NCBI GenBank assembly: GCA_047967505.1
Contig: CM106538.1
DNA length: 64,000 bases
Source of the DNA: Dipteris shenzhenensis
Lineage: Eukaryota
Strand: one strand, 5' to 3'
Shown: piece by piece, positions 29,393 through 64,000 of the stretch
Layout of the letters: every line of letters begins with the position of its first letter
Numbering within the stretch: position 1 is the first letter of the stretch
Notes under the pieces: generated by a model
Told to the model about the DNA's origin: nothing
The model's input: only the letters and a program-made list of their open reading frames with translations
Database searches by the model: none
Program-made: the position numbers and the translations under genes

Positions 29393-30419
29393 TGTATTAA
29401 TAGCCGAATCAGAAATCAGGACTAGAGGCTAGAGGCTAAGCATGGCGACACTTGAGGGCCATAGAGAAAAGGAGAACGTGAGGGCGAAACGTTATCATGG
29501 GAGGGAAAAAGGAATTAGAAGGGGAGGGAATGAAGAGGGAGACTATGACACAAGGGAAAAGGGAGAGGGGGAAGAGAAGCATGTACATGATGGGAGGAGG
29601 AATGTAAAGACGCAGACATCAAGGGAAGAGGACCATGCTTTATTTTGAAAGGAAGGGGAAGGGAGAAATCAAAGTACTGGCTAGGTGGCTTTACAAGAAT
29701 GAGCATGTCCCATCAAGGAATAGCCCCCTCCTTTTATAGCCAAGAGAGGGGGTCTCTCCCAATAATGCATCCTCCCACATGCATGGTGTGTGTGGAAAAG
29801 TCTCCCATGTGGGCTAGGCGGTTACACACTCTCAATTGTGTGCGACAACATTTTGCCTCATTTTTCCACATAAATCAAGCCCCATATCTCAAGTCTATGA
29901 TACTCCCTTGGTCTCTTCCCAATTTTATAATACATTCAAACCTCTAGGAGGACAAGTGGAGGGTTGGCACAAGGAATCTTGCCACTTCATCCTACTTTCC
30001 CCATTATTTAACTTGCTCTCTTGGACCTTCTATACCTCCCCCACATGGGCCTATCCTATATGGAGGGAATAACCCAATATAATATCCATCTCCACCTATT
30101 TTATATTACTTCTCCCATGGACTTTGAGTACTTCTTCCATGGACTTTGAGCCATATCTCACTAAATGTAGCCTAGGTGGAGGGGTGGCACATGGAGGAGC
30201 CATGCCATCTTACATTTTATAAAATTACTACCATGGATCACACCTTATGGGTCCTCTTACGTGGAAGGGTGGCACATGGTCATGCTCTACCACCTCAACC
30301 CTGGGCCCTATGCATACCATATTTTATTATACTATTGCCACACATACAAACACACACACATATTAATGCCTTTTTCCTTATACAAATTTATCCATAACAG
30401 TTCCCTCCCAGGCATGGAA

Positions 30420-37484: not shown

Positions 37485-38469
37485 TTTCTATTAGCCAGAT
37501 AAGAAATCAGGACCAGAGGCTAGAGGCTAAGCATGGCAACACTCGAGGGCCATAGAGGAAAGGAGAACGTGAGGGAAAAACGTTATCATGGGAGGGAAAA
37601 AGGAATTAGAAGGGGAGGGAATGAAGAGGGAGACTATGACACAAGGGAAAAGGGAGAGGGGGAAGAGAAGCATGTACATGATGGGAGGAGGAATGTAAAG
37701 ATGGAGACATCAAGGGAAGAGGACCATGCTTTATTTTAAAAGGAAGGGGAAGGGAGAAATCAAAGTACTAGCTAGGTGGCTTTACAAGAATGAGCATGTC
37801 CCATCAAGGAATAGCCCTCTCCTTTTATAGCTAAGAGAGGGGGTCTCTCCCAATAAGTGCATCCTCCCACATGCATGGTGTGTGTGGAAAAGTCTCCCAT
37901 GTGGGCTAGGCGGTTACGCACTCTCAATTATGTGCGATAATATTTTGCCTCATTTTTCCACATAAATCAAGCCCCATATCTCAAGTCTATGATACTCCCT
38001 TGGTCTCTTCCCAATTTTATAATACGTTCAAACCTCTAGGAGGACAAGTGGAGGGTTGGCACAAGGAATCTTGCCACCTCATCCTACTTTCCCCATTATT
38101 TAACTTGCTCTCTTGGATCTTCTATACCTCCCCCACATGGGCCTATCCTATATGGAGGGAATAACCCAATATAATATCCATCTCCACCTATTTTATATTA
38201 CTTCTCCCATGGACTTTGAGCCATATCTCACTAAATGCAGCCTAGGTGGAGGGGTGGCACATGGAGGAGCCATGCCATCTTACATTTTATAAAATTACTA
38301 CCATGGATCACACCTTATGGGTCCTCTTACGTGGAAGGGTGGCACATGGTCATGCCCTGCCACCTCAACCCTGGGCCCTATGCACACCATATTTTATTAT
38401 ACTATTGCCACACATACAAACACACACATGTATTAATGCCTTTTTCCTTAGACAAATTTATCCATAACA

Positions 38470-39545: not shown

Positions 39546-40647
39546 TTAGAGCTTGTCAGCCATGGGATCAGAGTCCATGAAGTAGCGATTGAGGGGACTG
39601 TCTGGCAGCATTTCCATGTGATCAAATACTGAAGAGGAGGCAGGAACCTCGTCCACCTTTGTTGCGGAATCAGGTCTTTGCGAGGATCCTTCTACCTCCA
39701 TGGTGGGTTCAGCTGCGCATGTTCTCGTTCCTGTTGTTGCCACCGTCGTCGCTACTACTGGCGGGGAGCATTGCGCAGATGACACGATTTGTTGATTCGA
39801 GACGGCGAGAGACTGCAACAGGTGTTGGATTGCTGAAGGTTGCGACTGATCTTGTGTCGTCAACATCGACCAATCCAATGGCGAAACTGGCAGCTGACCT
39901 CGCCGGAGAGCAACTTGTACGGAGCTGAAATCCTTCGCATCGCGCTTGTGATCCGCCTCTGCTTGTTCTGCTGCTCCCAATCTCGTCGATGTGTCTTCCG
40001 AAAATTCGTGAGCTCTCTCAGCAAAACTGAGGTTGATGCCAGCGAGGGATGGCGATTGTGATTGCGATTTCGCTTGAAGCAGGCACTGCGAGACTAGATC
40101 TATGGTCCTGGGCCGAACGTTGAAGTAATCGCTGCTGTTGTTGCTAGTACAGCTAAAACCTGCGTCTGCATTGCTGCAGCTATCGCTAATTAGAGCTGCA
40201 GCGTGAAGCTGGCAAAAGTCTGATTTGATGTCGGGAGAGGTGACGGGAGGGCCAAATCTGGGAGTGAAGGCGGAGCTATGGATGGTGGGGGAGGAGGGAG
40301 GGAGGAGGGTGAAGGCAACGGTGGAGGAATTGGAAAGCGACAGGGGAAATGGAAGCAAATTGGGATGTTGCTGGGGAAGCAAATTAGCAAATGGGACATG
40401 GAGCGTGTTGGAGGTAGTGGAGATGGGTGGTTGCTGTGAAAATCCTTGGAGACATTGCATGGAGATTTGAGGCATCAAAGGCTGTTGGAATGCAAAAGGC
40501 CATGTCTGATTGTCTAATTGAGAGGATCTGCAACTGTGGTCGCCTCTGTATGTGACATCACACATCGTTGCATCCTCGTCACACCTCTGCACGTGCTTGA
40601 CTGCTTGGCATCCAAGATCGGATTTGTGCGTGCATCTGTAGTAGCTC
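39546..40647 (-). CDS. WRKY: Group III WRKY transcription factor, exon 3
   Basis: GCAG acceptor; SYYRCTHKSDLGCQAVKHVQRCDEDATMCDVTYRGDHSC (C-X7-C-X23-H-X-C); open to TAA at 39548-39546. Confidence 0.95.
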
Positions 40648-40829
40648 CTGCATCACACAATACATCAGATTGATTCCAAGCATTGCACAATTGCTTTCTT
40701 GTAATCTTTCAGTTTAGAATCTCCTTTGAGATTCTTGCAATAGTTTCGGTTTGGAATCTCCTTTTAAATTGATAACACAGGAGATCCCAGGTAGTCCTTT
40801 CCTCAAAGCATGAAATATTTGTTCTAAGA

Positions 40830-43109: not shown

Positions 43110-43710
43110 GCCCACGTGGCATCTCCACGTCGAAAAACGCCACGTAGATTTCCACCGAACAACGCTTCTTATAGCTTCCATTTAAGGCTTCTGCACTTTA
43201 CAAAGACTGAGTCAAACTATCCACACACGTGTTCAACGGTCAACCTTTAAATATTGACTACGACTCTTTTTCCCCTCACGCCGTTCAAATTTCCTTGAGC
43301 AGGCCGTCCCCCTCCCTCTCTCTCTCCTGTGCTCCTTTTGCTTGCCCTCCGATATCGTCAAGTCCCCTGCTCCACACCCCCTCTCCTCTGTCCGCAAGCC
43401 TCCAACCGGTTTGTGCCTTGCCTTCATCTGTTTTTGTCAATGTCCCTCCATCATGAAATCATTTCCTTGCTCACTCTCCCACAATTCCACAATTCAAAGT
43501 TTGTCCCCCCTAAACAAGCTCATGACCTTCAATTTGTTATCATGGAACCGAAATAACATCATGTTGGAATTCAAAGGGGAAGAGTTGGTTAATTCACATC
43601 AATACAAAGGCTTTTCAATACTACTTGCTGATGTTGATGAGAATGATAAGACACGGTCTGTAATGTTTCACAAAGGAGCGAAATGGTCAAATAATAACTT
43701 TTGACTGAGT
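43110..43710. promoter_or_regulatory. W-box and G-box/ABRE cluster upstream of WRKY
   Basis: TTGACY (either strand) at 43210, 43238, 43254, 43685, 43701; CCACGTGGC at 43112, GCCACGTA at 43139, CACGTG at 43226. Confidence 0.65.
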
Positions 43711-43742
43711 CTCCTCGCTACTTGCCTCAAGTTGGAATGTTG

Positions 43743-43787
<45 letters not shown>

Positions 43788-43814
43788 TTATGGCATTCTT
43801 ATTCTCGAGGGGTG

Positions 43815-44070
43815 CACTAATAAGAAACCCTATGTATCACGTGCGTTCAAAGGGTATTAAAAAAAAAACCTCAACTAAAATTTGCCTCCCAATGAAAACA
43901 TCCCTCTTTGCTTATGGACTAGGTGATTTTTTTATAAAATTGAATTAAAAAACCCCTCTTGTAATCGTAATCCTGTTAAATTTTATAGAAAAGTCAAATT
44001 AAAATACCCCTCCTTTTGAATGCACATGGTACATTAAAATTTTATAAGGTGAACCCTGAGTTCTTATTAT
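43815..44070. mobile_element. MITE-like inverted repeat
   Basis: 43831-43851 TATGTATCACGTGCGTTCAAA vs rc of 44015-44035 AATGTACCATGTGCATTCAAA; AT-rich interior; exact ends and TSD unclear. Confidence 0.5.
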
Positions 44071-45015: not shown

Positions 45016-46039
45016 TTGGTCAGTGGTAGCTCCTTAAAAATGCACCCCCGAAGGAATGATATCCCCCGGCCTACAGATTGCTCGATTGCGGCCAATTCTT
45101 CCCTTTAAACATCATTCATGAGTATCAACTTGTGTCCTCAGCTAGCAGACTGTCCATAGGAACAAAATTCCCCGGCATGAAGATTGCTCGACAGCCTGCG
45201 GCGGCAAGCTTCTCCCTGTAGCTCAGTTCACCATCTGTACCTGTGTGTCTTTCTATTCCCTTTGACTCATCTCGCCGGATCTACATGAAGTAGATCCTCT
45301 GTGCGAGCCATTGCATATTTGCTGCACGAATGATATTCCCCGGCCTGCAAATTGCTTGACTACATCCAACTCCTCCCTTCAGCTCTTCCATTGTACCCCT
45401 TGCATTGAATAATTCCTCACCTGTCAGGCTGTCCATCTGGCTACTTCCTCTGCCACCTTCGACAAGAGAAGGCATTGTTCGAGTGGTATATCTGTGTATG
45501 GTGACCAAAGTGTTGGCTCTTGGAAGTTCCTTTTCGGGCGAGACATCATTTCACCAGATCTACCTAAGTAGATCCTCAGGAGGCCTACCAATTGGCTGTT
45601 GCTTCAGTTGCAGTAAAGGCTTCAAACGATTCATTGCATTCTTTGCTAAAGGCATCGTTCCAGTTATTTGGGGTCTCAACCCTGACTTCATGCCCAAAAT
45701 TGATGTAATTTCAAATAGCTCCCTCTTTTCAGACTTCTTCCAGGCCCATTGTTCACTAGCAATGAGGACACGAATATTGCGTGAAAAAAAAGACTGTGCA
45801 TGATAGCTAGCAAACCTAAGCAGTGCGGACATGAATATCGCCTTTCTTTCAAGGTGGGAAGAAAAAGTGTCCTTGAATAGCGCCTACCCTGGTGTAGGCA
45901 ATGCAAACACATTGCGGGTTTTTATAAAAATATAAGTAGTGCGGAAACATTGTGGAAACAAACTTTTGATTGAAACATGTTCAATTACATTCCAAGGGCC
46001 AGCCCTCCATCCCAACTGTAGATAATGTTAGAGGCCAAC

Positions 46040-46962
46040 TAACTCTTATGCACACTAAGCAGTGATGCTATTTGTGTGGACGAAAAGGTTGGCTGGTGAA
46101 TGAACATGTCTTCACTCTTACGTAGCCCTATAACATGAAGGAACATGTAGTACACTTGTGCTTGCAAGCCAAGTATGGTTTTTTGGCCACCTCTCTTTTT
46201 TGGAAATTAGGATAGCTACAGCAGGGCTCTGTCTTGACTTGCACTTCGTAGGTGCTTCCACTGTTGCTGGAAACATGAAACACACAATGTCGCAGGGGCT
46301 GTATTGTCATCTTTGCGGATACCACTACATTCATCTCCTCTGCACTTGCAATTCTCTTGGAGGCCTCCTTTGAAATTCCATGTCTCCATTTGGACGATCT
46401 TGTAGCTATAGCACTGTCACTTTTCCCGGTCGAGTCCCTATTGTTGGTAGGATTAGAGGTAGGCTCTGTTGGTATGCCCGAGGACACCGCTTTAACCCAT
46501 GCTGACTTCACATTTATTAGCTTGGAACCCAGCTCATTGTTGTAGATGACATAGCTCTGCTAATGTTATATTTATTCCTACATCAACCTGGCTCTAGGAT
46601 ATCTACTTCTAAGAGAAGGATCTTTCAGTAGCAGTCGTGCAAAATATGGGATTCCAACTTGCAGGATGATTTGAGCTCTCCGAAAGTGTTGGTTTGTACA
46701 ATATATTACTATCCACATGCTATGTGTGCTCCCAATCATCTGTACAGAACCACATCCACTGCGGTTTCAGTCCACCGGGGCCAGGATGGCATCTTTCAGA
46801 GAAGAAACAAGGAGTCACGACTCCTTGAGAGATTTATTCTATATGGCAACCACACTTCCTCTTATCAACTGTGCCAAAACACTTCACCCTTGAAAGTTCT
46901 GCGTATTGCCCACATAGAACGGTTCACCGCCTCCTCCATGAGACTAAGGACCTCCTCTCTAT
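46040..46962 (-). pseudogene. SWIM zinc-finger protein pseudogene fragment (probably TE-derived)
   Basis: GSTYEVQVKTEPCCSYPNF..YLACKH then YYMFLHV..FIHQPTFS (YxV..CxC..CKH pattern); upstream WAIRRT and WFCTDD; frame abruptly replaced at about 46963. Confidence 0.7.
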
Positions 46963-47169
46963 TGGGTCACATTAGGGGAGAATTGGGGTCTCAAAAGGGC
47001 CAGGAATGGATCAGGGAATGCTTAATGGGCTAATGCAAGGGGCTTGGAGGGTCCCAAAGAGGCCTAACCAGCCCAACCTAGGTGGGTTAAGCCCACATTT
47101 GAGCCCACCTCCCCCCCCATCAATGAGGGGAGGGGGCCACTTTTTGAATTTTAAATTTCAAAATTTGAA

Positions 47170-47700
47170 TCTCCCTCCCTCCCTCCCTCTCTCTCTCTCT
47201 CTCCCTTCCTCCCTCTCTCTCCCTCCCCCTCCTCCCTCCCTCCTCCCTCCCTCTCTCTCTCTCTCTCCCTCCCTCCCTCTCCCTCCCTCCCCCTCCTCCC
47301 TCCCTCCCTCCCTCCCTTCTCCTTCCTCTCCCTCCCTCCCCCTCCCTCCTCCTCTCCCCTCCCTCCTCCTCTCCCCTCCTTCGTCTTGCGCCTCCTCCTC
47401 CCTCTCCCCTCCTCCTCCTCCTCCTTCTGGCTCCTCCTGCCTCCTTCCTCTCCCCTCCTTCTCCAGCCGCCCTACTCCCTCTCCTCTGCTCCTCCCTCCT
47501 GCAGAATCTCTCCCCTCCTCCCTCCTGTAGCATCTCTCCCCTCCTCCTCCCTTCTACAGCAGCTCCTTCCCTCCCTTCTACACCAGTCGCCCTACTCTCC
47601 TCTCCTCTTCCTCTTGCCCGATTTGCTTCTCCTCCTCCCTCTTCCTTGCTACTCTCTCCCTCTCACTGCTCAATCTTTGCCAGCTCTCTCCTACATTTTA
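47170..47700. repeat. Polypyrimidine low-complexity tract (CCT/CCCT/CT)
   Basis: About 500 bp, almost all C/T on the plus strand, just upstream of the transposase ATG. Confidence 0.95.
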
Positions 47701-47946
47701 GCCTGCATCACTGATACCTCTCTTTGAGTACTTATGGCACCATTCGAGGACATATCCAACAAGTACCATGTGAACCTACAACTAGAGGTAGAATATACAA
47801 GCACACGCCTTTTGGAATATAGTGGAACTCCTCAAAGTGTGCTCCACAGTCTTTGATTGCAAGGGAAGAAGCATCTTGACCTTTGGGTGGATGGAAACTT
47901 GTATCCTTTAGAACCTGCCACCCAAAAGAGTCCTCCTTTTCATATA

Positions 47947-49390
47947 GTGCATGATGTTTGGTTTGTTGGCAATAGACATGCTGGATTGCTCAGTTATTGC
48001 AATCTATTGTGGCAATGCATAGTAGTATGCAAGATCTCCAATTGCAAAACAAAGAACTCAGTGACAAAGCACGTGCACTAGACTTGGAGCGACAGGAATT
48101 GGAAGAATCAATCTAGAAGCTTGCTAAAAGCAAACAAGATTTGGAAAGGTCTATCTATGGCCAAGTTCAACGTGCTATGGAGAAGGAACGAGAGAAGTTG
48201 ATAGAACAAGTACAAAAGTTGAAGGAAACACCTTTGGGACTGAAGGAGAGGAAAAGAAAATTGCAATCTATGGATGCATTGTCAACCAATAGTGGTTCCC
48301 GAAAGAGGAGAGTACGGGCTGCAAGGTTAGTTCCCCAAAATTTCAATGAAATTTCTTACTCCAAAATATTCATGGTGTTGCATTGTTTCCACTAAGACTC
48401 ATTTGTACTCAACTTTAGGAATTTCATGGAGGATGCAATGGGAGCATTGGAAATGGATGATAGTGATCCTTCATATGTCCTAAGAAGTTTAATAAAGCCA
48501 AGTGATGTCATTGAAGTGTTGAAGGACCCCAGACAAAAAGGGCTACGTGAACAAGTTGCTAGAGAGGTAATGAAGGACTTTAAGGGCCTCGTGCAAGCAA
48601 AGGAGATGCTTGGAACTTGTGCCGGTGCATGATGTTCAGTTTGTTGGCAATGGACATGCTGGATTGCTCGGTTATTGCAATCGATTGAACCATTCTTAGA
48701 CATTGGCTATGCAAGCAAGCGAGGTGTAGAGAGCCCAAGCAGAAGAACTTGCACATTTGGGAAATATTATTATTGTGCCAATGCATAGTAGTATGCAAGA
48801 TCTCCAATTGCAAAACAAAGAACTAAGTGACAAAGCACGTGCACTAGACTTGGAGCGACAGGAATTGGAAGAATCAATCTAGAAGCCTGTTGAAAGCAAA
48901 CAAGATTTGGAAAGGTCTATCTATGGCCAAGTTCAACGTGCTATGGAGAAGGAATGAGAGAAGTCGATAGAACAAGTACAAAAGTTGAAGGGAACACCTT
49001 TGGGACTGAAGGAGAGAAAAGGAAATTGCAATCTATGGATGCATTGTCAACCAATAGAGGTTCTCGAGAGAGGAGAGTACGAGCTGCAAGGTTAGTTCCC
49101 CAAAATTTCAATGAAATTTCTGACTCCAAAATATTCATGGTGTTGCATTGTTTCACTAAGACTCATTTGTACTCAACTTTAGGAATTTCATGGAGGATGT
49201 GATGGGAGCAATGGAAATGGATGATAGTGATCCTTCATATGTTCTAAGAAGTTTAATAAAGCCAAGTGATGTCATTGAAATGTTGAAGGACCGTAGACAA
49301 AAAGGGCTACGTGAACAAGTTGCTAGAGAGGGAATGAAGGACTTTAAGGGCCTCATGCAAGAAAAGGAGGTGCTTGGAGCTTGTGTTGCT
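47947..49390 (+). repeat. Tandem duplication of about 680/760 bp within the transposase gene
   Basis: 47947-48624 and 48625-49388 are colinear, including the intron; the first copy lacks about 85 bp. Confidence 0.95.
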
Positions 49391-50090
49391 GTTGGTGTAA
49401 GTCGTGAAGCTTACAACTCTGTTTTTAAAATTTTCAAGTCTGCTACGAAGGAAAAGTATGAGATATCTACAATGCCATTGCCAACACCGTGGTCTGTAAG
49501 GCTTGCACATCAAGAAACAAACCAATGTACTAGAGAAAAGCTTGGAGGATACCATTGTTTAAGTGGCACAATGACTTGGAAGAGCAAAAAGAAATCTGGC
49601 ATCTAAACGTTTGAGATTAATGCTTTCAATAATGTTTACGTGGATGTAGAGAATTTGCAGAGAGCCATGGTCAAATTCTAAGGGATGAGAGAAGAAGATA
49701 AGAGAAATTCCCTCTTTGCATTTAACGTTATTTCTTCCCATTTCTATATCCTTAATGTATTTCTCTTTCATTGTACAGATGGCAAGCTAGTATTTGTTAT
49801 AAAAATGGATGAAGCTCAGTTGGTAAAAGACCACAAGCTAGAGAGGGTGAGCATTTGTATTATGAACGATGCCTTACATTTTTCTCAAGGGGATGAGGAA
49901 GTTGAGCAGGGTTTCTTAGTCTAATTTGAGGACATATCGTGGCTTGCAGCCTTTGAGACCCCAAAGGAGTGGCACGAGACATTGAAGTGGGTTTTGGAGA
50001 GAACCGACATCCTGTCGATTATTCAAAGATAAGAGGCAAGGCAAACATTAATAGTGGATGGGCATGGAATGTTTCAAGTTGAATGACATC

Positions 50091-50350
50091 CAGCCAAGAA
50101 AAAAATTAGGGGCGAATTTTAGCCCAAGGGCTAATTTAGCAGCTTTCCCAAGTTGGTTGGGCTAATATTTAGAGCTTTAAATTTGATAAATTAGCCCAAA
50201 AATAAAGGTGGGCTAATTTTTAGAGCCTCCAATTTGATAAATTTGCCCTAAAAGTGGTAGAAGGACTAATATTTATAACTCTATATGGGGGAAGGTTTGC
50301 CCATTGACCTACACTGTCATAATCTTGTTCCCTCATAATTTTTTACCCTG
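50091..50350. mobile_element. 260 bp MITE-like insertion with 4 bp TSD
   Basis: CATC|CAGCCAAGAAAAAAATTAGGGG ... CCTCATAATTTTTTACCCTG|CATC; removal restores VE*HLVGDLK; internal GGGCTAA repeats. Confidence 0.85.
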
Positions 50351-51739
50351 CATCTAGTTGGTGATTTGAAGACCCACAAGTGCTTGTATGGCTTTGATAT
50401 AGGTGTAGATGCAAAATGGACGTGCTTGTATTGCACCCACTCTCAGAAGATGCAAAAGGGAAGCCTACAGTGGGAAAATGTCATCCTTTCTTGCAACCAA
50501 AGTGCAGCCCCTGATCATCATAAAAAGGATCCTAAGTGGGACCCCATTCTACTAATTCCATTGGAGCGGGTACACGTGTGTACTTTGCATGTTGAACTGC
50601 GTATACTTGATAAGTTACTCTATCTCCATCTAGTTTATGCTTGGAATTTGAGGCTGCATCAAGTATCGACACAATGCATTGCAAAAGCTGAAGAACTACT
50701 CTCACTAATGGGACTTCACGGAGGCAATGTGAAGCATAAGCAGGACAAGAAACAATCAGGAAAGACACAAAATCTTCCTGTAAAGTGTCCATGGGTGGAG
50801 GAAAGGCAAGGAGGTTCTTGTCCAACCACAATGGTGATATAGAAAAACATACATTGGCTCAAAGGACCCTAGGTTGGGAGTACTGGAAAGCTTTGTGTGA
50901 GTGCACTACAAATCAAGCTTCACATCTGCGAATTGCTACTTTGAGAGCAAAACTATGGACAAAGCTTGATGCATTTATAAAGTTGCTTAGACAAGGTTAA
51001 ATAGATGAGCTTTATTATGAGAGATTCAGGACAACATTGGGAGAATTCATATCATTGATGGTAGAAGCATGGGGGGAGTCACATCTTACACATTACATGG
51101 TTATCCTCCTTAGGCTGAAATTTTGTGCTTGAAACTTGATTTAGTTTATGTTTCTAATATGATGTTTTTCTTTACAGCATATTCTTTACGCACATGCACC
51201 ATGGTTTGTGGAGCAATGGGGCCCTCTGTCCATTTGGAATACTCAAGGAATGGAGAAATTGCACCACACAACAAAGGCAACATACTTCAAGAACACAAGG
51301 CATGGGGGTGGTATCACACAAAGCAATGCACTACACGAAATGTTCGACTGGTTTTATAGATGTCTAGAGGCCAGGACTCTCAAGCACGATAAGGTAGAGG
51401 TCTCAAGTCTCGCAAAAGTGGTTCAACATGTCAAGAAGACAAGGAGATGTGCTGCTTGGAAGTCCTCAATAGGGAGCGAAGGGGTTGTGCTTTGGTTGCA
51501 ACGTAGTCAGACAGGGGAGGCATTGGGTCCTAAGAGAACCCCAAATGTAAAATGTTTGATGAATAAAGTTAACACTATTTTGAGTTAATTATAGATTCCA
51601 AAATTCATAAATTTGTTTGGAAATTGCAAAATTGCATGTGCGACATGGCAAGGCGGAGGGGTGGGTGGTTTGGGAGGGAGGGTGGTGAAGATTAAGCATT
51701 ACCGAATTGGTGACAAAAGACTGGGGGGGAGGGGGTGCA

Positions 51740-51830
51740 CTCAAAAACCCTAATTTAAAAGGGCCTATAAATAAAAACCCTAAAGTTCTTTAAAAAAGAC
51801 TATATAAAGCACTTCAAAGCCCTAAAATCC
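51740..51830 (+). promoter_or_regulatory. Putative promoter of the H3-like gene
   Basis: Two telo-boxes AAACCCTAA (about 51745 and 51775), TATAAATA (51766) and TATATAAA (51801), about 100-150 bp before ATG 51912. Confidence 0.5.
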
Positions 51831-51911
51831 CTCATTTCTGTGGCACGAGTTAAACAAACTACTAGACTCATTGGACGTCGCTTAGATGCTACCCGCTCTC
51901 CTCACAATTCC

Positions 51912-53090
51912 ATGGCCTTCGAACACACTACAAGAACCAGTGGCCAAGAGGGCAATGATTAGCAAGGATCTAAATGCGGTTCTCATCATCATGAGTCCTA
52001 GCAACACGAGTCCTCACCATCTGATTCTCATTGGGGATCCCAGGGATCTTAGCACCATGAGGAATCCCAGCATGATGAAGGATCCAAGCACGATCAGGGG
52101 TCCTCTCAGTCCTTCCACACAACTAACCGTGGAAGTAGAGAGGTCTCCCAGGAGGGACAAAATAGTCCAATCAATCGTGATCAACTACCCTTCCCTCCTC
52201 TGTGGGGTCCTGCCATGGAGCATTTAGACCAACAAGGGGAGCAAGAAAGGCAAAGCGAGGAGATGGAGAGATTAAAAGGGCCACAACAAGAGGAAGTATT
52301 TGGTGAGCTCACAGATATAATGAACCTTGGCCCCAATCATCCAACCAAGCAGACCGCACGAAAGAGGACCCCCTTTGTGCCTTAGGATGGTCACATATGA
52401 GGAGCCTCTAGTACGAGCTGAGCAAGAGCCTCAACCTACTGTCTCACAGCCTCATCAAAAGGAAAAGGGAACAAGGACAAAGCAGACCCCTAGGCGCGAT
52501 AGGCCACCTCGAAGGACCCACCAGATATAGGAAGAGGAGTCTAAAGAGGAGGTTGCAAGGGAGGAGAGGCAAAAGAAGTTCAAAGTGGACAAGCAGCCAT
52601 GGATCCATGTCCAGGGGCTGGCCCCCAAAGATTAAGAGGTGCAAAAAATCAGGCGTGAAGGCACTTCAAGAGATCCGACACAGGAAGAGGAGTCTAAAGA
52701 GGAGGTTGCAAGGGAGGAGAGGTGAAAGAAGTTCAAAGTGGACAAGCAGCCATGGATCCATGTCCAGGGGCTGGCCCCCAAAGATTAAGAGGTGCAAAAA
52801 ATCAGGCGTGAAGGCACTTCAAGAGATACAAGTTCCAAACCACTGTGGACAATCTCATTCACCGTGCACCCTTCTAGTGTGTTGTACGTGAAATAGCACA
52901 TCATCACAAGGATGATATGTGTTTCACTTCAGGTGCTATGGGAGCAATTCAGGAGGCAATGGAGCAGATGATAGTAGGTCTTTTTGAAGACGTGAACTTA
53001 TGTGCTATCCATGCCAAAAGAGTAACAATGATGGACAAGGACCTTGCACTCGCCAAGCACATCTGCTCTAATCCCTTCCTTAGGCCCTAG
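51912..53090 (+). pseudogene. Divergent histone H3-like pseudogene with long N-terminal extension
   Basis: [86 protein letters not shown] is an H3 histone fold. TKQTARKRT at 52344 and RTKQTPRR at 52474; 153 bp tandem duplication at about 52527-52830; intronless. Confidence 0.92.
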
Positions 53091-53334
53091 ATGTTGTTTA
53101 GCTCATTTGGTGTAATCTGAATCATTTTGTAATCTCAATACAACATAGTGTACATGTAGCTATATCGTGTGCACTCCTCTCTCCCTCTCTCTCTCACACA
53201 AGGAGTGATGATATGGAGTGTTACAACTATTCCAAAACACATTTATGGAGCTTTATGTTCAATACAACATAGTGTACATGTAGCTATATCGTGTCCACTC
53301 CTCTCTCTCTTTCTCTCTCTCCCTCCCTCCCTCC

Positions 53335-53394
<60 letters not shown>

Positions 53395-53744
53395 ATTAGC
53401 GACCTTATCCTTGTAAATTTTCATCGTTATACTTTCCCTTTATAATGTATTTGATCTTTTTTCATTCCAAAAATGAAAAAATGTTTCCTTTCTTTATTTA
53501 AGAAGATTTATTTTTCTTTCTTACCAAATCAATAGAAATGTTGCCTTTGAGAGTATAGGGTTCCTATCTAGATTAGTTGGAAAAAGCATAAGAACTATTC
53601 TCATGAGATAAAGTAAATTCATAATCTATGTTGATTTGTTCTTGTTGTATTATTGTTGTTGCTTATTAGTGTTTACCCAAAGATAATTTTAAAAGAAGCC
53701 TTTTGTCTCGAATTGTGTGTGGATGTGCACTTGGGTCACATGAT

Positions 53745-56700
53745 GTTGTCATTTTGCCTAAATATATGCTTGGCCAAAAGGATTTTTTATATTTTAACTT
53801 TTTGATGTGCCTTATTCTATTAGTTATTACCTCTAATCATCCCCTTCATAATGATTATAAATATTTTCTTTAATAAACACCAATACACCCCATTATCCAA
53901 ACATCTATACCAAACATTAGTTTTGCCAAGAAGAACAAGTACTATATAAACAAAGAAAAGCAACCATGTCAACTAGGTTTGAACAAAATTGAGAAATCAT
54001 TTCAAAAAGTTTTCATTATATGGGTACATGTATGGGTGTGTGAATAGGTTCTTTGTATGCGTATGTGTATGGGTTTTTTAATTAAAAATATTTTGATAAA
54101 AATTTATTTTATTGGATTCTAGTTAATATAAAATTAATGTGTGTGTCTGTGTGTGTGTGTACATGTCTAGGGGTTGTGGATGCATGAGAGAATTGGTGGT
54201 AAAGCTAAAGGAAAAAACAAAATCTAATGCTGTTAATAGATTGGTTAACAATACGCCACCGCTGGTTAAGTGATGTGATTTGATGGTGGACAATGGCGAG
54301 TCCGCAGAGCTTGGATTGTGTCTTGGAGCTACATGGGCCCAAGAGGATGGTAAAAGAATGAGAAGGGAGAGTGGTATAAACAAATTAGGTTGGCCCTCCC
54401 TTCAAAAGGTGACTTATATAAAAGGCCAAATGGTTGACTTTGGTCTTCATTGTTGTTTGCACAAGTTTGAATACAAGCTCCCTCTTCTCTTCCAAGAGAG
54501 TGTTTTGGGTGTTCTCTTGTTTCCATTGTAGTGCCCTTATGTTGCCACTCCATCCCCCTTCACTCTGCTCTTCCCTTCTCCTTCTCCCTCCCTTCTCCCC
54601 TCTCTTCTCCCCTCTTCCCTTCCCTCTTTCTCGCATGGAAACACATTGCAACAATCCGGAGGCCACTTGAGTGACACTTGCGGATGACTCATGCCTTTCA
54701 TTGCTCTCACAAGGAGTAGCTTGGAGTAGAAGCTCCATCGGCATCTCTTCAACATTCCCATGTCACACGAGTCACACCACTTAGACCACACATTTTTTGT
54801 GGTTGCTGCTGGGGAATAAAGGTATGCTTTTGCATTGCACTTGTCTTCCTTCGTTATCTACCCATTGCACAAGGCTTCAAGCTTAACTTGGAGATTTGTT
54901 AGTGGAGTTGTAGGAGAAGAGAGAGGGAGGAAGTGAGAGGTTTGGATGGAAAAGTAGGAAAACTTTTTTTTTTTGTTGGAAAGTCATTTTGGAGCATTTG
55001 AAGCTTGTTTTTTATGCTTTTTAGTGTTTTGAGTTGATAGGATTTTAGTGTGTGATACCATCTTGTCAACCTCCATACCTACCTTGGCATCCTCAGGGTC
55101 ATCAAGCTCAAAGTTCAATTCTCACTCATTGCAAGATCCACCACCAGCTGAATTATCCAGCTCGGAAGAGTCCATGAGTCAAGATAGAGACATGGGTGAA
55201 CCCTCTAATGTTGGAGCGTCAGTGGCTCTGAACTCCATCCCCATTAATCTCCACTCTCCTACTCCATCTACCACAGCAACTACATTAAGGGAAACCTTTT
55301 CCAATATCATGGGAAGGATTGGATTGACAGACCCAATAGAGTGGCTAAACCCATTTGCTGGTCGGGACTAGGGCAATGTCAAAGGCTCAAAAGCTAGCCC
55401 AACCACCGATGTCAGAAGCAATACTCAGGGAGCCAAGTCCCACAATACCTAATGGCAATCAACCCCCGTCGTACCAATTCTTTGATGATACACAATCCTA
55501 TGGGGATGGATTTGGACCCACATTCTCACAAGGGTCCCAAATGCTAGAGCAAAGGGGGCAGAGGAGTAACCTTGAAGGCTCACAATTAAGACCCTCCACC
55601 TTAGAATCCCCTATGATGCCTCCTTGGCAACAAAACATGGGAGATATTCTCTACCCAACAAGTGTCCCTTATAGTCCTATTCCTACAAGGAACATACCAC
55701 TCACTAGAGGACCTCTAGTCCAACTTGTTAGGCCCAACCTGACCCAAGTCACAATGCCAATGCCTAGTGGGCTTGGATCCTCCCATCCCAACCTCATGCC
55801 ATCAAATCCATGGAACCCTTCATTAGGATCACCAATGTATGGGACATTGCCCACCATTCCACAACCTCCTCTTGTATCGCCAATGGTCCTTATAGATGAA
55901 GCTATGAGAATCATAGTGCAAGCACCACCGCTCCACCACCAATGTTTCTAGGATGGGATACCAATCCCTCAAGGAGCAAGCCTATCACAATCTCCAAGTT
56001 AATCACCAAGTTTGTAGGAGAAGGAGACCCAGTCTCCCATGTTGAGAGGTTTGAACAAATATGTGACACCTTTGGTGATATTGGGGATCTAGACAAGGTC
56101 AATGCTTTTAGCTTGAGTCTTGATGGCAAGGCTGGACAATGGTTTAGAGCCTTAAACCCTAAGGAGAAAATAAATTGGGACACATTGTGTAGATCTTTCA
56201 TTCTGGGGTTTGCCCCCAGTGGTCCCAAGTGGAGCCCGCTTAACCAGCTTTATGATGAGAGGATGATGTGCAGCTTCTGCCACGCTTCCTCATAGGGCTA
56301 TGAGATGCTAAGCTGCATGATCATCTGTTTGCTATGAATCTCACATCATTTGAGCTATGCAGCAAGACCACGTTACACCTAGGGGATAACATGAGGGAGA
56401 TGCCCCAAAAGGATAGATCCTTAGCTTCCTCTAATATGTCTCGAATAGCACAAGCTTCAACCTTAGAAGCAACTAGGGGTGCAAGCATGATGCCCAAAGT
56501 GCTCAACATGAAAGAGTTGGCCACAGATCTATTAAACAAGTTGAGCCAACAATGGAATATAGAAGCACCAAAAGATGCTCCTAGCAACCCCCATCTCTTT
56601 CCACAAAGAGATAACATATGGTGTGGGGTATGCACTGGAAGTCATCTGACCAAGGAATGCCCTCGTCTTTTAGAACTAGGCTAACACTCTACTGTGCCCA

Positions 56701-59550
56701 TTGTGATTGTTGGGGAAATCATGACACATCCCAATGTCACTATTCTAGGGTGATTCCTCAACCAATGTATCAACAAAGGCCGCATCTACCATTTCGTACA
56801 CCACCCAATCCACCGAATCAGGAACAATTAGCAATACAAGGAGCCACATCAGCCAATCAAGCTCAATATAGGACTCAAAATATTCCATTACCCTTGCCAG
56901 TACTGGGATTGAACCACCACCACCACCACGAATTACTCCCTTGAATCAAGTATTGGTGGAAGAACTACCTAGTGATTGGGGAGACCCCCAACCTACCTTT
57001 AGTGGAAACAAATATCCCCAAAATGGTGACAGTGCAAATCGGTCCAACATTATAAGTCACCACATTATACAAGGTGAACAATACATTCCGATCTCCTAGA
57101 CGGATTTGATTCCTCAAAAAATGGGATATATGAACTTGACCAAGACACAATCCATTCAATGCCATATGTGTCAGGGGTCAGACCCTGCCAATGAGTGTCC
57201 ATATAAGGGGCAATCTAAGCAACCAATCACATGTGCACTGGCATCTAATACACCCCCGCCATCGTGCACTAGGTGTGGTGTGGACCATCTCTTTAAGGAT
57301 TGCTCTATGAGAAGGCCATCTAAGTCCACAAGCCTTAACTTGTTAAGCATTGAGAGAGGCCAAGTGTCATTAGTATCCTTGAATGTAATCACGAGGCTGC
57401 AAGCTAAATCTCTTAATAAAGAGATTTGCAAACAAGCCAAAAGGGATAAAGCTAGTACGTCACATCCTAGAGGGGCAACTAAATCAGCACGAGTAAGCAC
57501 CAAGGGTGCAATGAAGATTGGGAAGGGACAAAACAAGGTCATCATCCAAGATCGGATGAAGATACAACGTCCCTACCGACATCATCTTCCTCTGATGATA
57601 CTCTCTCAAATGGTACCAACAATAACCACTCGCATGGAGACAAATGAGGCACCGATAACGGCTTCAACCCATGGCCAAGCCACAACACCGAAGGGTCACA
57701 GTGGATATTCCAACCCATGGGTGGGGAAACAAGGTCTCACTGAGGTGCATAAATTGGTACACAAGTGCCAAGAGGAATTTCAGTAGAGTCTCAAGGCAAG
57801 CAAGAGTACAGATACAATTCATCCTAGATATGAGATAAATGCTCGAGCCTCAAAAGCCTTGCAAATACCTAAAAGGGTAGAGGAAGAAGGTGTGTCATGC
57901 CCTTCAACAGAGGGATCCACCCTAAGGCAACGGATGTTTGAAGAAGACCCTGCCTTGCAACAACTAAAGGAGGATGATAACATGTCCTTATATGGCTTAG
58001 AAGAGTCTAAATCAATAGGCACACAATCTACAGGATTAGCTTCATTCTGTCCACTAAGATCAAGATACCCATCACAAGACTATTACGGGGTAATCCTACT
58101 CTATGGAGGGACCTCTTGGATTAGATGAATGGGCAAATGGTGACACTCCAACCCACAAATCCTGATACTGTTGAATCTCCCAATCATCCTCAAGACCTTC
58201 CAAGGGTGCTAGTCAACAAATTGGGCCAATATTTTGAGAGCGATGACACGAATGCAGTGATACCCATCTCCTTCTGTGATAAGAAAGCTATGGCAATCTT
58301 AGATGGAGGAGCAGGTAGTAGCATCATCCACGAAACAATGCTGGGAAAAGTGGGGAAGTCCTGACTAAGAAAGTACTTCCTTGATAGTTGAGTTAGTTGA
58401 TGAAGGCATGACTCATCCCATAGGAGTACTCAAGGACATTAAAATCAAAACCTGCGGTCTCACATATTGGGTGTGCCTTGTTGTAATGGATTTCCAAAAC
58501 AACCCTGGATATGAGTATATTCTAGTGAGACCTTTCTTGCATATGGCAGGATTGATCCATGATTGCACTCCTCCAACATTTATCTAAGGAAATATCAGCT
58601 AGTCGTGAGGGTTGATCTATGGATATGGAGGGCTCACACTATGTCTGCAAATCTATTTGTGGTTGATTCAGATACCACCGATAGGTCTGTGCCAGTAAAG
58701 CTAGTTAAAAATATGAGAAAGAGGATAGTGACAAGAGTCTTGATGAACCGTGGTGTGCCCCCTTACCAGAACTAGAAGATGCACATGATTGGATGCATAC
58801 ATTGGCGGCAATAGATCCACCAATTACTAAGGGCGCTCAGACAATGTACCTTGATGATGAACAATTCAGCTCCATTACACCTTTTTACACCATAAGAGCG
58901 GTACTACTAGTCAAAATGAATTAGGAATTGACAATGCCCTTGATCCTAACAAGATAGATAGGACTCCATCTCAACTTTGTGTAGAGCTAACATCAGTAGA
59001 TGCAACATGCTGAATACAGGCTAGGGTAGATGGGTGAGCAAGCCACAACCTCATCTTCTGGGAGACATTAAAGCATCTTGGCTAGGTACGCCTTCAAGCA
59101 TGTGATTCTAAAATTCAATCCATAGAGGGTACCTATATTAAGGTTATTGGTTCTTCAATGTTAAATGTTTCCTTCGACAATTAAATTGTGCCTTGCAAGT
59201 TTTTTGTAGCTCCTACAAGTACCTTAACTAAAGCTGCCATTCTTGGTAAAAGCTGGATCCAAGACACGCACACAGGGTTAGTCGGTGATGAATCATCCCA
59301 TGATGCACCAATTGCTAGCCAAGGATCAATATCAACAACTACTTCCACCTCCCCACCTCGATGAGGATGCCACCAAGGAAGAAGATGAAGACAAAAGGCA
59401 ACCACGCAAATATGGGTTTGAAAGGATCTATTGAAGGATCAAGGATACTTTGAGGGTGAATCATATTTTTGGATTCCAAAGAGACCTCAACAAATGAAGC
59501 CACCCCCTCCTTAGTCTGCAAGAAGCTCAAGAGGGGTCAATTGGTGTTAG
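53745..59550 (+). mobile_element. Decayed Gypsy remnant: LTR-like region, gag, zinc knuckles, two protease-like domains; no RT
   Basis: Putative LTR end at 54792 (start uncertain), PBS-like TGGTTGCTGCTGGGGAAT (54800); KFVGEGDPVSHVERFEQIC..SLDGKAGQWF (gag); CGVCTGSHLTKEC, CTRCGVDHLFKDC; AILDGGAGSSII. Confidence 0.85.
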
Positions 59551-59666
59551 AGTCCACCTGCTCAATCAGTTTCACCGCCAAGGCCATCTCTTCGGTCAAG
59601 GAAGGCCATTTGGAGGGGCACCAAACGTTGGAGGCGCTAGGATGGCTGTGGCAGCTGCTGTGATTA

Positions 59667-62512
59667 TGGCGGGTCAGATCAAGTATGCTAAGTTTTTGGG
59701 GCAAAAATCAAACGACCCCAATGCGCATGTCTGGCTATTTGAAAAGGCATATTAGATCAACAATCTGGGAGCTATGGTACCACTCCGACAAGAGGTGATT
59801 TTTGAGTCAAATTTATCGAGCAAGGCGGCACGCTGGTTGGCAGAGTACGCAGTGAACCATTTCACCACATATGATGTGGCCCGTGATGCATTCTTGAGAC
59901 GGTTTCGTCGAGAAAAAATGATTCCGCAAACTCTAGATAGATTGCACTGCTTAGAGCAAGGAGATCAGGATGTGGAAGGTTATGCATCCAAATTCAATTT
60001 ACACTTCCAACGTGTGCCTGCTGCTCAAAGCCCTGCTCAGGAGGTACTCAGTAACTACTTCATTTTGGGGCTATCATGGGATCTGCGGACGACATTGGCC
60101 ACAGTGGATCAGACACAGACAATGCTCGTAGTGATCATGGCACAAGCAATGCGAGCAGGGGAGTCACTCTACGGGAGGACATCCAAGAATCGCAAATCCG
60201 CGAAGAGTAACCAAGAAGAAAATGTCAAAATCTAAGGAGTCAGATGACAGTGATGAAGATTTGGATGTGACTAGTTCGGACGGAAGCTTCGAAGGTACCA
60301 GTTCGGAGGATTTCAACTTGGAAACAGAGATGAAGACCCAGAGAGCCTCTAAAGGGGGTAAGGGCATGCTAGTGGCTTTTGAAGAAGGATCCATACCTAA
60401 AGGCTTGAAGGGTATATTGTGCACTCACTACCGAAATCCTGGTCACTCCGCAATTGAGTGTGCTCTTAACGTGAATTGGTGCGTGATTTGCTTGACTAAT
60501 ACATACAACATGGTGGGATGCCACTACAATGGGCATGGCCAGAGAGTGCAGCAAGATGCAGCTACATCTTTTGTTCAAGAAGAGCTGCAGCAACAAGCAT
60601 TTTAGCCCCAGCAACAGACGTTCCAACGAGGCGGAGGCGACGGTGGCCGCCATGGATGCAGATGAGGAGGCAGGGGGTTGTGGTCAAAATCAATCGAAAA
60701 CCTGTCTGTTTTACTTGGGCGAAGGCCATTGGCGGAACGAATGCTTAGAGGCTCAGGAATGGGATCAGCAATGCATGGAGAGGCAAAAGATGTCCAGGAA
60801 AATGCCCAGCACTTCGATGGTACACATTATTGATGATGATCCGCTGGTGTGCCCAGAGAATAGCATAATCACCCGTGTTGGCACCAAATTGACTCCCAAG
60901 AACGATGACAAGCTGCTAGACTAGTCAACCCAAGAACACGTTCGATGCCAAGTCTACGAGTTGGTGACGAACGAGCCACCATTGATGTCCCTGGCAGAGT
61001 CTGCAACAACTAGTGAGGCACGTAAGGTGCAATTTGCAGAACTAACTGGTCAATCAGAGGCGGAGACTCAAGCCAAGTTTAAGCTGCACTTACTAGGAAA
61101 TGGTCCAAAGGCGGTCGAAGCAACTCCGCTGTTGGTCGCAAACCAAGCCAAGAGGCGGGCAAATTCTCCGCAAAGGGAGCCGGGGTTGGAGTGCATTTTG
61201 GAGGCTCCTATCCAGATTTCATTGGGCAGATTGCTTAATCTGGCTCCAGGATTCCACCGACAATATGCATTCCCTGCACACAGAGTCTGAACCAGAAGAG
61301 CTGGAGCTATGTAAAGCTGATTCATGCCCAGTTATGGTAGTTCCTTTGACTAACATGAGAATTTCGATGACTTCTACAAAGGCACAAGGTCAGAATTTTG
61401 CTCTGGTGCTAGTGGATGGCAGTTTGGGGGTCAATATCATCACTTTGAAGACCTGCCAAGAAATGGGATGGATGTCCTAGGAGCCGGCACCATTCTTAGT
61501 CTGCATGGCTGATCAACGTCGAGTTCCACCACTCGAAATCTTATGGACCATTGTTCTAGAGGTGGCGGGCATATCATTTGTGGTGTCCTTTGTGGTGCTC
61601 AACATGGAAGCCGCAACACCAGAGTATAATGTCCTCTTGGGTAGGCTTTGGTTGCCGCAAGCAAAAGTCAACCAAATTGGAAGCAGAACGTCATTTCAGT
61701 GCGGAGAGGAAAGAAGAAAGTGCGGGTCACAATGGGAGTGGCGGCACCTTTGGCAGATGTGATACGATCTATGTTGGTTGAGACGGTTAACATGGCATAC
61801 GGATTGGAGGATGATGAGGAGGAAGCCTTTCTCAAAGCAAATCTGGAGTTGTGGTTCCTATCTTCACCATCGATGTGGAAGGCATTATGAACAGTTACGT
61901 GCATCAAAGTTTTCTGGCGGATGTGGCCAGCATTGTTCCAAAGGAGGAGACTGAGCCCCAGCAAGTAGCAGTAAGGCTGAATTCCACAGTGAATTAATTG
62001 CCCTCTTGCGGGAATTTTTTGATGTGTTCACCTGGGACTATGCGGATATGAAGGGTCTGGATCCAAAATTTTACTAGCATCGAGTCAACCTCAAACCAGA
62101 TGTGACTCCGACAAAGATACAGAGGTATTGTATGAATCTGCACGTGGCCAAGCAAGTGCGTGAAGAACTGGAGCATTTGCTGTGGGTGGGATTCATCGCA
62201 TCGATTGAAAATCCAGAGTAGATTTCCCCGATTGTCATTGTGCCAAAGAAAAATAGAAATTGCGAATTTGTGTTGACTATCGCAAGCTGAATGTGGCCAT
62301 AGTACCTAATCCATTTCCCTTACCATACATGGATTCTATGCTCAACAAAATGGCACAGCAAGAGGTGTACTCCTTCTTGGATGGATATAGCGGGTACAAC
62401 CAAATCCGAATGGCTCTGGGGGACTAGCCCAAAACAGTGTTCATCAGTCTCTCTATGTCTGCACGGTCATGTGGTTCGGATTGCAGAATGCTCCTTTGAC
62501 TTTTGTCACGTG
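59667..62512 (+). mobile_element. Third decayed Gypsy: gag, protease, 5' half of RT; both ends missing
   Basis: LSSKAARWL..LEQGDQDVEGYASKF; LVDGSLGVNII..VLLGRLWL; CVDYRKLN..YSFLDGYSGYNQI..FGLQNAP, then truncated. Confidence 0.9.
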
Positions 62513-62739
62513 TGCTTGTAATTAAGAGAGCATTTCTGCTTCTTGTTGGTAGCATTCTGAAATGGAACCATGAGAGGATGTGCGAAACACAATGGAGTTA
62601 GAGTTAAAGCAACAAAAAAAATCAGATTATTATGATGAGCATGCACCATGTAGCTTGCATTCTATGCTTTGTTGCTACACTATCAACTATGAATCACCAC
62701 ATCGTAGGGGAATCTTGCAATGGATCCATGAGAGGGTTT

Positions 62740-63060
62740 GAAAATAGCTTTGCATATTATTTTGAGAAGAAGGACTCAAGGGTTGGAAAGTGAATATGGT
62801 GAGAAGAAGAAGGATTCGAGGGTTGAAAGTCATTATGGTGAGAAGAAGAAGGATTTAGTGTTGGAAAGTGATTTTGGCATGGTTTGGGGGAAGGTGTTGA
62901 ATATTGTGAGAAGAAGAAGGATTCAAGGGTTGGAAAGTGAATATGGTGAGAAGAAGAAAGATTCTAGGGTTGGAAACTAATTATGGTGAGAAGAAGAAGG
63001 ATTTAGTAGTTGGAAAGTGATTTGGGTGCCTAGGCATGGTTTGGGGGAAGGTTTGGAACG
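62740..63060. repeat. About 39 bp tandem repeats, candidate subterminal repeats
   Basis: Repeated GGGTTGGAAAGTGAATATGGTGAGAAGAAGAAGGATT and GGCATGGTTTGGGGGAAGGT. Confidence 0.85.
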
Positions 63061-63399
63061 GTGTCAAGTCATTTTTTGCACTTTTTGAAAAAATTGAACT
63101 TTTAGGGGGAGTGGTATCCGTTAGATACTTTTTGGGAATGGGGACCACATTAAGATATAAAGAGAGTGGACTTCTTACAAGTGGGAGAGGATAGTACACT
63201 TTTTAGGACCACCAAAGCCTAGGGCGATGTACCTTTTTAGACCCATATGGGGGAGATGGGACACTCTATAGGCCTTCTTAGTTCTTAATCCATTTTGCTA
63301 ATCCACTCATTATGAGGAGCTTTTCAAGTCTGAAATTACTCTAATGCAACGGCATTGATATTGACATCTTCTCTTTGACACTGACATCGATGCTGATAT

Positions 63400-64000
63400 C
63401 CATTTTTTTCAAAAGTTGGAAATTTTTTTCAAATGTAAATTCCATCAATAAGAGCATTGTAAAGAGGGGTCAATCTATTGTAGTCTAGTTCTGATATATC
63501 CCATCCTCAAATATATTTTAATATGCCTGGCTATCTCACCTTCTTCCTTGTGATGCCAATCCTTACAAGATAAGTGAGGTGGGCATGGTAGTCTATCATT
63601 CACACATCTGAGATCACGTTCCAATTTTGTGGGGCCTTGTTATAGGAGAGTCCCCAAGAAGGACAACCGAGTAGCTGAGGGGGAAGGGAGCAATGCGCTT
63701 GTGAAGAAGGTCCCATAATTCTTTGGAGAAAACACAGTTGAGGAACAAATGTGGAATGTCCTCCCGTTCTCTATTGCATTGTTTACACCATCCATCCCCA
63801 TGGCCAATCACCTCTATCCTAGAATTTGGCAAATCTTAGAGACCATCTATTTGCATCATCTCTCTGGAACCAAGTTTTCTTGAGTCTAGCTATCAAATCC
63901 TCCTATCCGTCATATAAAATTGTAACCGGCATTAAGTTCCATTGACCCACCCATCTAAATTCTCTTGTGGCAGGAAGTAGTCGTCCGCCTAGCCAAGGGA
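63400..64000 (-). mobile_element. LINE ORF2 C-terminal (zf-RVT) remnant
   Basis: WCKQCNREREDIPHLFLNCVFSKELW matches the CxxC..E...HLF..C......W motif. Confidence 0.8.

Follow-up and report, generated by a model that had tools for sequence, protein, structure and literature searches.

A 64,000-nt stretch of contig CM106538.1 of Dipteris shenzhenensis, called the window in its full length, contains a transposase gene and a histone H3-like gene that we assign, with moderate confidence, to a single dead copy of a cut-and-paste transposon of the CMCT clade; the transposase is weakly RAG1-like, the left terminus is placed at the CATTAGG of position 46970, and the right terminus is not established. 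As given in PMC12730594, the CMCT clade comprises EnSpm/CACTA, Mirage, Chapaev, Transib, Plavaka, ESTA, as well as Lanisha, lineages that mostly have 5′-CA..TG-3′ termini and produce duplications of 2-5 bp. A previous description of this DNA (the original prediction) had the element at 46958..63269, running from a left end at 46963/46964 to a right end at 63264, with three asymmetric pairs of blocks similar to recombination signal sequences (RSS) and a 5-bp duplication, TCTAT, next to them. The features on which the present reading is built are the following.

46970..47011, + strand: module conserved at the 5′ terminus (CATTAGG followed, after 20 nt of spacer with TTGG at its core, by GGGCC...), matched by a profile of four loci; proposed left terminus
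47160..47700, + strand: CT-rich tract of low complexity that separates the module from the first conserved exon
47821..51588, + strand: remnant of a RAG1/Transib-like transposase gene of the CMCT clade, found by tblastx against 25 loci
52412..53090, + strand: histone H3-like gene, with the histone fold at 52878-53090 (Pfam Histone, E 1.2e-18)

The conserved module at the left end

Relatives of the transposase are encoded by 25 metagenome contigs found in the locus search, eight of which reach the first conserved exon, located at 47860-47943 in the window. All four loci with more than 470 bp of sequence upstream of this exon (L004, L005, L006, and L007) have the same module of about 40 nt, made of CATTAGG, 19-20 nt with a TTTGG core, and then GGGCCTTGTAAG (also given as GGGCCTTGTAAGRA). 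The module lies 493-762 bp upstream of the exon in these loci and 890 bp upstream in the window, where the CT-rich tract stands between the two; the window copy, at 46970, reads CATTAGGGGAGAATTGGGGTCTCAAAAGGGCC. It is conserved among relatives whose proteins share only 40-50% identity, with a 1-nt length difference within it, and the conservation has a sharp edge: in pairwise comparisons, the identity averages 27% over the 30 nt that precede the module and 70% over its first 19 nt, and the BLASTN homology between L004 and L007 begins at the module.

As a test independent of the motifs of the original prediction, both strands of the window were scanned with a profile made only from the four loci; its best match was 46970-47001 (+), starting from model position 1, with an E-value of 0.02, and the next best had an E-value of 0.51. 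The same position was the best or second-best match in the window for three of the four single-locus probes, and the string CATTAGGRGA, which occurs exactly in 3 of the 25 loci, always on the + strand and upstream of the gene, is found exactly once in the window, at 46970.

From these comparisons, it is proposed that the true left terminus would be the C of CATTAGG at 46970, rather than 46963/46964: the original prediction had located a real boundary nearby, and the homology with the four relatives sets its onset 6-7 bp further inside. Other parts of that description hold well. The end is bipartite, as it had stated, in that the conserved module has two parts and the second left block (46986-46998) falls within it, and this bipartite conserved end is the sound core of the RSS-like idea; moreover, the end does not start with CAC, since the terminus defined by homology opens with CATTAGG in the window and in all four relatives. 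The transposase would bind both blocks of the module, about two helical turns apart, and would cut at the CA, like other CMCT elements. If CATTAGG were the true terminus, the module would be a concrete and testable site of recognition for the RAG1/Transib-like transposases of an H3-carrying plant lineage.

Two minor observations concern the module and its surroundings. A cluster of GCCCA / TGGGC motifs occurs at 46997-47095, just inside the left end, and is similar to the site-II elements of plant promoters. At 22874-22892 (+), CATCAGGGGAATTTTGATG agrees with the start of the L006 module in 16 positions out of 19 (E 0.68 in nhmmer); no transposase homology was found near this would-be second end, which could be a solo end or a chance match.

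The paired blocks and the TCTAT duplication

As for the end motifs of the original prediction, all of them are found in the window at their coordinates, and as a set they do no better than chance.

46964-46972, 46986-46998, and 47041-47061, + strand: left blocks, present in the sequence
63199..63264, − strand: right blocks, present; paired with the left blocks, they do not exceed chance
46958..46962, no strand: left TCTAT (CTAT at 46959-46962), present, 7 bp away from the homology boundary (46970), on its outer side
63265..63269, no strand: right TCTAT (CTAT at 63266-63269), present, within the span delimited by the alternative terminus 63346

In the first pair, GGGTCACAT at 46964-46972 and GTGTCCCAT, read from 63264 on the minus strand, agree at 7 of 9 positions; in the second, GGGTCTCAAAAGG at 46986-46998 and GGGTCTAAAAAGG at 63244-63232 agree at 12 of 13; in the third, GGCTTGGAGGGTCCCAAAGAG at 47041-47061 and GGCTTTGGTGGTCCTAAAAAG at 63219-63199 agree at 16 of 21, and the spacers between the first two blocks measure 13 nt on the left and 11 nt on the right. 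Strict local alignment of 46940-47140 with the reverse complement of 63120-63290 retained the 13-mer alone, with a score that was reached by 4 of 300 shuffles and, against the left end, by 63 of 600 random pieces of the window; allowing up to two mismatches, the 13-mer had 4 matches against 1.86 expected, a count reached by 10 of 100 shuffles. A gap-tolerant score, which admits the whole chain of blocks, was 35.6 for the claimed pair; 155,520 inverted left/right pairings of 110-nt pieces, taken from 40-49 kb and from 53.1-64 kb, on either side of the transposase, had a mean of 30.8 (standard deviation 6.9), and 35,506 of them (22.8%) reached the score of the claimed pair. The core GGTCYNWAA, defined post hoc, had 13 matches against 8.3 expected, and neither self-BLAST nor the repeat finder detected a long inverted repeat around the transposase. 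Thus, by both the strict alignment and the gap-tolerant pairings, the three paired blocks do not stand out as meaningful ends: together with TCTAT they are chance resemblances, and the observation is real, yet without significance as it was described.

With the left homology boundary at 46970, GGGTCA and TCTAT belong to the flank and lie outside the element; TCTAT is 7 bp beyond the boundary, hence it does not adjoin the terminus, and its interpretation as a target-site duplication fails. The first left block straddles this boundary, and the second is located inside the conserved module, in its variable spacer. Asymmetry of the 12/23 or 27/31 type is not seen in the spacers, because these are 19-20 nt long in all six aligned ends (19 nt in L004, L007, and the right candidate of the window; 20 nt in L005, L006, and the left end of the window), none of which is a confirmed 3′ end. 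CAC/GTG termini with a 5-bp duplication were also looked for, and no convincing pair emerged among the 176 × 224 CAC/GTG pairs scanned. Overall, chance motifs underlie the RSS-like interpretation of the locus, and the family is not yet citable as a plant case of asymmetric ends of the RSS type.

Foldback or hairpin ends were considered as well and ruled out, with DNA folding z-scores of 0.69 and 0.07 for the two ends in the window. The strongest inverted match in the region joins the GA-rich microsatellite at 43676-43850 and the CT-rich one at 53251-53460; it is an artefact of low complexity and not a terminal inverted repeat.

The right end and the competing readings

At the other side of the unit, the best inverted match to the module ends 82 bp outside the right end of the original prediction.

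63307..63346, − strand: candidate for the right terminal module (CATTAGAGTAATTTCAGACTTGAAAAGCTCC... on this strand), in which 27 of 40 positions agree with the L007 probe; marginal support

The 40-nt ungapped probe from L007, compared with 127,922 positions, scored 27/40 at 63346 (−) and 26/40 at 46970 (+), the next best value being 23; by the binomial, 0.003 and 0.02 such matches, respectively, would be expected in the window. In addition, when the left end is aligned with 63216-63346 in reverse complement, the match starts at both termini and extends inward over about 90 nt (p 0.015). These similarities point, tentatively and with a little less than an even chance, to a right terminus at 63346; the position 63264, which has no independent support, is highly improbable, and the remaining probability goes to an end that was lost or is unrecognised. 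A right end at 63346 would give an element of 16,377 bp, the last 10 kb of which would consist of Ty3/gypsy debris and a minisatellite.

55033..58128, + strand: first Ty3/gypsy gag fragment, with CCHC zinc knuckles (Pfam Retrotrans_gag at 55900-56295)
59756..62424, + strand: second Ty3/gypsy fragment, truncated, with gag, a protease-like stretch, and the start of the reverse transcriptase (Retrotrans_gag / Ty3_capsid at 59756-60235; RVT_1 at 62257-62424)
62750..63060, no strand: minisatellite with a unit of about 40 bp

No pair of long terminal repeats (LTRs) was found for the two Ty3/gypsy fragments by the repeat finder, and the element sequence conserved with the relatives spans 46970-53072 only, about 6 kb. 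The original prediction had a native element of about 7 kb inflated to 16 kb by nested Gypsy remnants: the remnants are indeed inside its span, and the right end is unproven.

Three further leads were dropped. A scan for TG-ended sequences against the left end of the window itself gave 9/12 at best; the 3′-side homology boundaries of the relatives coincide with the ends of coding sequences and are uninformative on termini; and CTTGTAAGRA, with 3 matches in the window against 0.51 expected, was abandoned, one copy being adjacent to a long interspersed nuclear element (LINE) and the copy in L017 being inside the H3 coding sequence.

Several results weigh against an element delimited by these two ends. 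Taking the module as a terminal inverted repeat, as opposed to a conserved leader or promoter, is a choice made from the 5′ ends of the relatives only; no inverted copy was found 2-3 kb downstream of their transposases, where the best minus-strand matches, 23-24/40, are at background level, and in all four relatives the module ends in GTAAG, which resembles a splice donor. The profile gives 46970 an E-value of just 0.02, and this position is outside the top 8 for the L004 probe. Concerning 63346, the four-locus profile does not report it at E ≤ 100, by the gapped sum score it shares the 9th place among 9,941, and it is third of 31 CATTAG sites, with 53915 (+ strand) scoring higher; no k-mer excess is common to the two 180-bp ends (p 0.07 for k = 6 and 0.28 for k = 7), and the flanks, ...GGGTCA on the left and CAACGG... 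on the right, have only CA in common, so that no 5-bp target-site duplication is found there. The DNA downstream of the relatives gives no support for 63346, and the upstream flanks of the four relatives are unlike the right terminal region of the window (p 0.26-0.88).

The module might be the core promoter or an untranslated leader exon of the transposase gene, with the real termini elsewhere, unrecognised or lost, an explanation that we consider unlikely. It would account for the fixed distance of the module upstream of the first conserved exon, for the terminal GTAAG, and for the lack of an inverted copy downstream in the relatives. A promoter, however, is normally conserved on both sides of the start site, and here, in five elements that come from at least two sources, the onset at CATTAGG is abrupt and the sequence upstream of it is random; furthermore, GTAAG is missing from the copy in the window, and a coding role is ruled out by the 1-nt length difference inside the module. 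Lastly, the module begins with CA, as do the CMCT termini according to PMC12730594; the abrupt onset of homology combined with this CA start favours a terminus over a leader or a promoter.

If the left terminus is real, the element could still have been truncated on the right somewhere after the H3 gene (53.1 kb), with the match at 63346 being due to chance or to another fragment and the retroelement debris merely neighbouring; this is possible, albeit doubtful. The homology with the relatives that stops at 53072, the gypsy fragments devoid of LTRs or of insertion scars indicating nesting, and the marginal standing of 63346 in the profile, gapped score, CATTAG ranking, and k-mer comparisons all agree with it, but they leave aside that the two best matches of the independent L007 probe, 46970 (+) and 63346 (−), are inverted around the unit, and that the left-right alignment begins at both termini. 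The model of the original prediction, with its ends at 46963/46964 and 63264, is very improbable. All its motifs and both TCTAT copies do exist, Transib and ProtoRAG produce duplications of 5 bp according to PMC8355894, and its left end is at most 7 bp from the homology boundary; still, its chain of blocks is at the 77th percentile of arbitrary pairings and is reduced to the 13-mer by strict alignment, the homology with four relatives begins inside it and excludes GGGTCA and TCTAT, the register of its two first blocks differs by one base when TCTAT is taken as the duplication, and its first right block pairs better with the third left block in the alignment of the left end with the 63346 candidate.

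The transposase, the H3 gene, and the surrounding sequence

The transposase copy is dead, on account of a frameshift, an in-frame stop, and internal duplications. The frameshift is near 50755-50800, where the open reading frames (ORFs) are in different frames and the tblastn match is split; the stop, at 50998-51000, is inside homologous sequence and just before an intron at about 51109-51165; and a 766-bp tandem duplication involves 48005-48621 and 48771-49385. A 45-nt unit whose ends are inverted, TGGGCTAAT...ATTAGCCCA, occurs twice in tandem at 50158-50253, inside a presumed transposase intron.

With the ORF 51163-51588 as the query, 91 protein relatives were found (E ≤ 0.001), most of which are short predicted genes from small contigs. 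This ORF and that at 50339-50842 contain the series GDLK ... C(2)C (CLYC) ... H(4)H (HVCTLH) ... QGMEK, in a region conserved in the relatives. One relative, P0012, matches 15 PDB sequences, all of them RAG1, with a best E-value of 0.0024 in the region of the catalytic E. The link to RAG1 is loosened by other data: Pfam RAG1 is found in 4 of 17 relatives, always below the curated cut-off, the transposase ORFs of the window match nothing in PDB or Pfam, a 38-sequence profile matched no RAG1 chain, and the Atlas, where recognition is low, ranks the Plavaka cluster 2 and the RAG1 cluster 26. Word-based protein searches gave no matches. Because its motifs are common to the whole CMCT clade, whose termini are mostly CA..TG, the enzyme is filed under this clade as weakly RAG1-like, an assignment made by sequence comparison in which membership of Transib is unproven.

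As for the H3-like gene, it has a 153-bp tandem duplication (98.6% identity) at 52524-52827, in the region of the N-terminal tail, that repeats a KSGVKALQEI segment. An H3 gene is found downstream of the transposase in 4 of the 25 metagenome loci, and in the Ceratopteris richardii protein P0035 (KAH7296203.1) the last ∼75 residues of the transposase family are joined to a full H3 domain, which suggests a read-through or a mis-joined gene model over the same pair of genes in this fern. In two loci, a third ORF begins downstream of H3 (L024, 2713-2856, MVRVKKTP...; L025, 3077-3238, MVRRKITP...); its start recalls a histone tail, and a (GA)n run precedes the ORF in L024. No counterpart of this ORF was found in the window.

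The Transib superfamily and RAG1 were reportedly treated by Kapitonov and Jurka in 2005. With them the present family shares the alignment of P0012 to the catalytic-E region of RAG1 and a bipartite conserved end, composed of a 7-nt terminal block, a spacer, and a second block. It differs in having CATTAGG instead of CAC, in spacers of 19-20 nt at every end seen, without 12/23 asymmetry, in the unsupported 5-bp duplication, and in carrying an H3 gene; further, the similarity to RAG1 is marginal and is unseen for the ORFs of the window itself. ProtoRAG and RAG-like elements, for which PMC8355894 describes a terminal block and a conserved subterminal region, are similar in this organisation, whereas the CAC ends, the 27/31 asymmetry in amphioxus, and the 5-bp duplications given for them by the same source are not seen here.

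As for the CMCT clade, the C(2)C / H(3-4)H motifs occur in the ORFs of the window, as judged by motif reading, the 5′-CA left terminus fits, the candidate right end would give ...TG-3′, and a possible 2-bp CA duplication would fall in the range of 2-5 bp, all by comparison with PMC12730594. The H3 gene sets the family apart, no histone-carrying lineage having been found in the literature searched, nor, in open-access text, any paper on the combination of a plant RAG1/Transib-like transposase with an H3 gene. Among non-seed plants, the literature search found a sole published land-plant CMCT lineage, Lanisha, a cut-and-paste superfamily from the moss Ceratodon purpureus (PMC8245031), which PMC12730594 includes in the clade; the family of the window may or may not belong to it.

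More speculatively, and with rather low probability, these data could denote a plant lineage of RAG1-like transposons that has its own H3 variant and whose transposase recognises a bipartite end, in which a 7-nt block near the cleavage site and a distal block of 12 nt are separated by a spacer of about two helical turns. In such a case, the heptamer-spacer-nonamer logic of the RSS would not have been invented by animals; it would be old and widespread in this transposase clade, and a chromatin component would come with the element itself.

Regarding the flanks, the minus strand at 46720-46966 resembles a MULE SWIM finger together with the region that precedes it, by a visual CxC...PC pattern only. 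The original prediction had a SWIM frame broken at the left end, an idea that the domain search does not support: no SWIM or MULE domain was found by Pfam at E ≤ 5 in the 12 minus-strand ORFs of 45281-46966, and the homology search with the ORF neighbouring the left flank returned nothing. The 730 bp beyond the right end of the original prediction contain a LINE remnant, and not the remainder of a MULE.

63617..63835, − strand: LINE zf-RVT remnant in the right flank (Pfam zf-RVT, E 5.4e-06)

Since the left flank has no Pfam domain and the right one is LINE-derived, the flanks give no empty-site argument in either direction.

Elsewhere in the window, two direct repeats of about 1 kb, at 29398-30399 and 37489-38469, are 94.7% identical and 8 kb apart, and are probably the LTR pair of an LTR retrotransposon of about 9 kb. 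Finally, at 39546-40652 (−), the start of an open frame of 368 aa encodes the C-terminal portion of a WRKY DNA-binding domain (E 5e-11 in Pfam).

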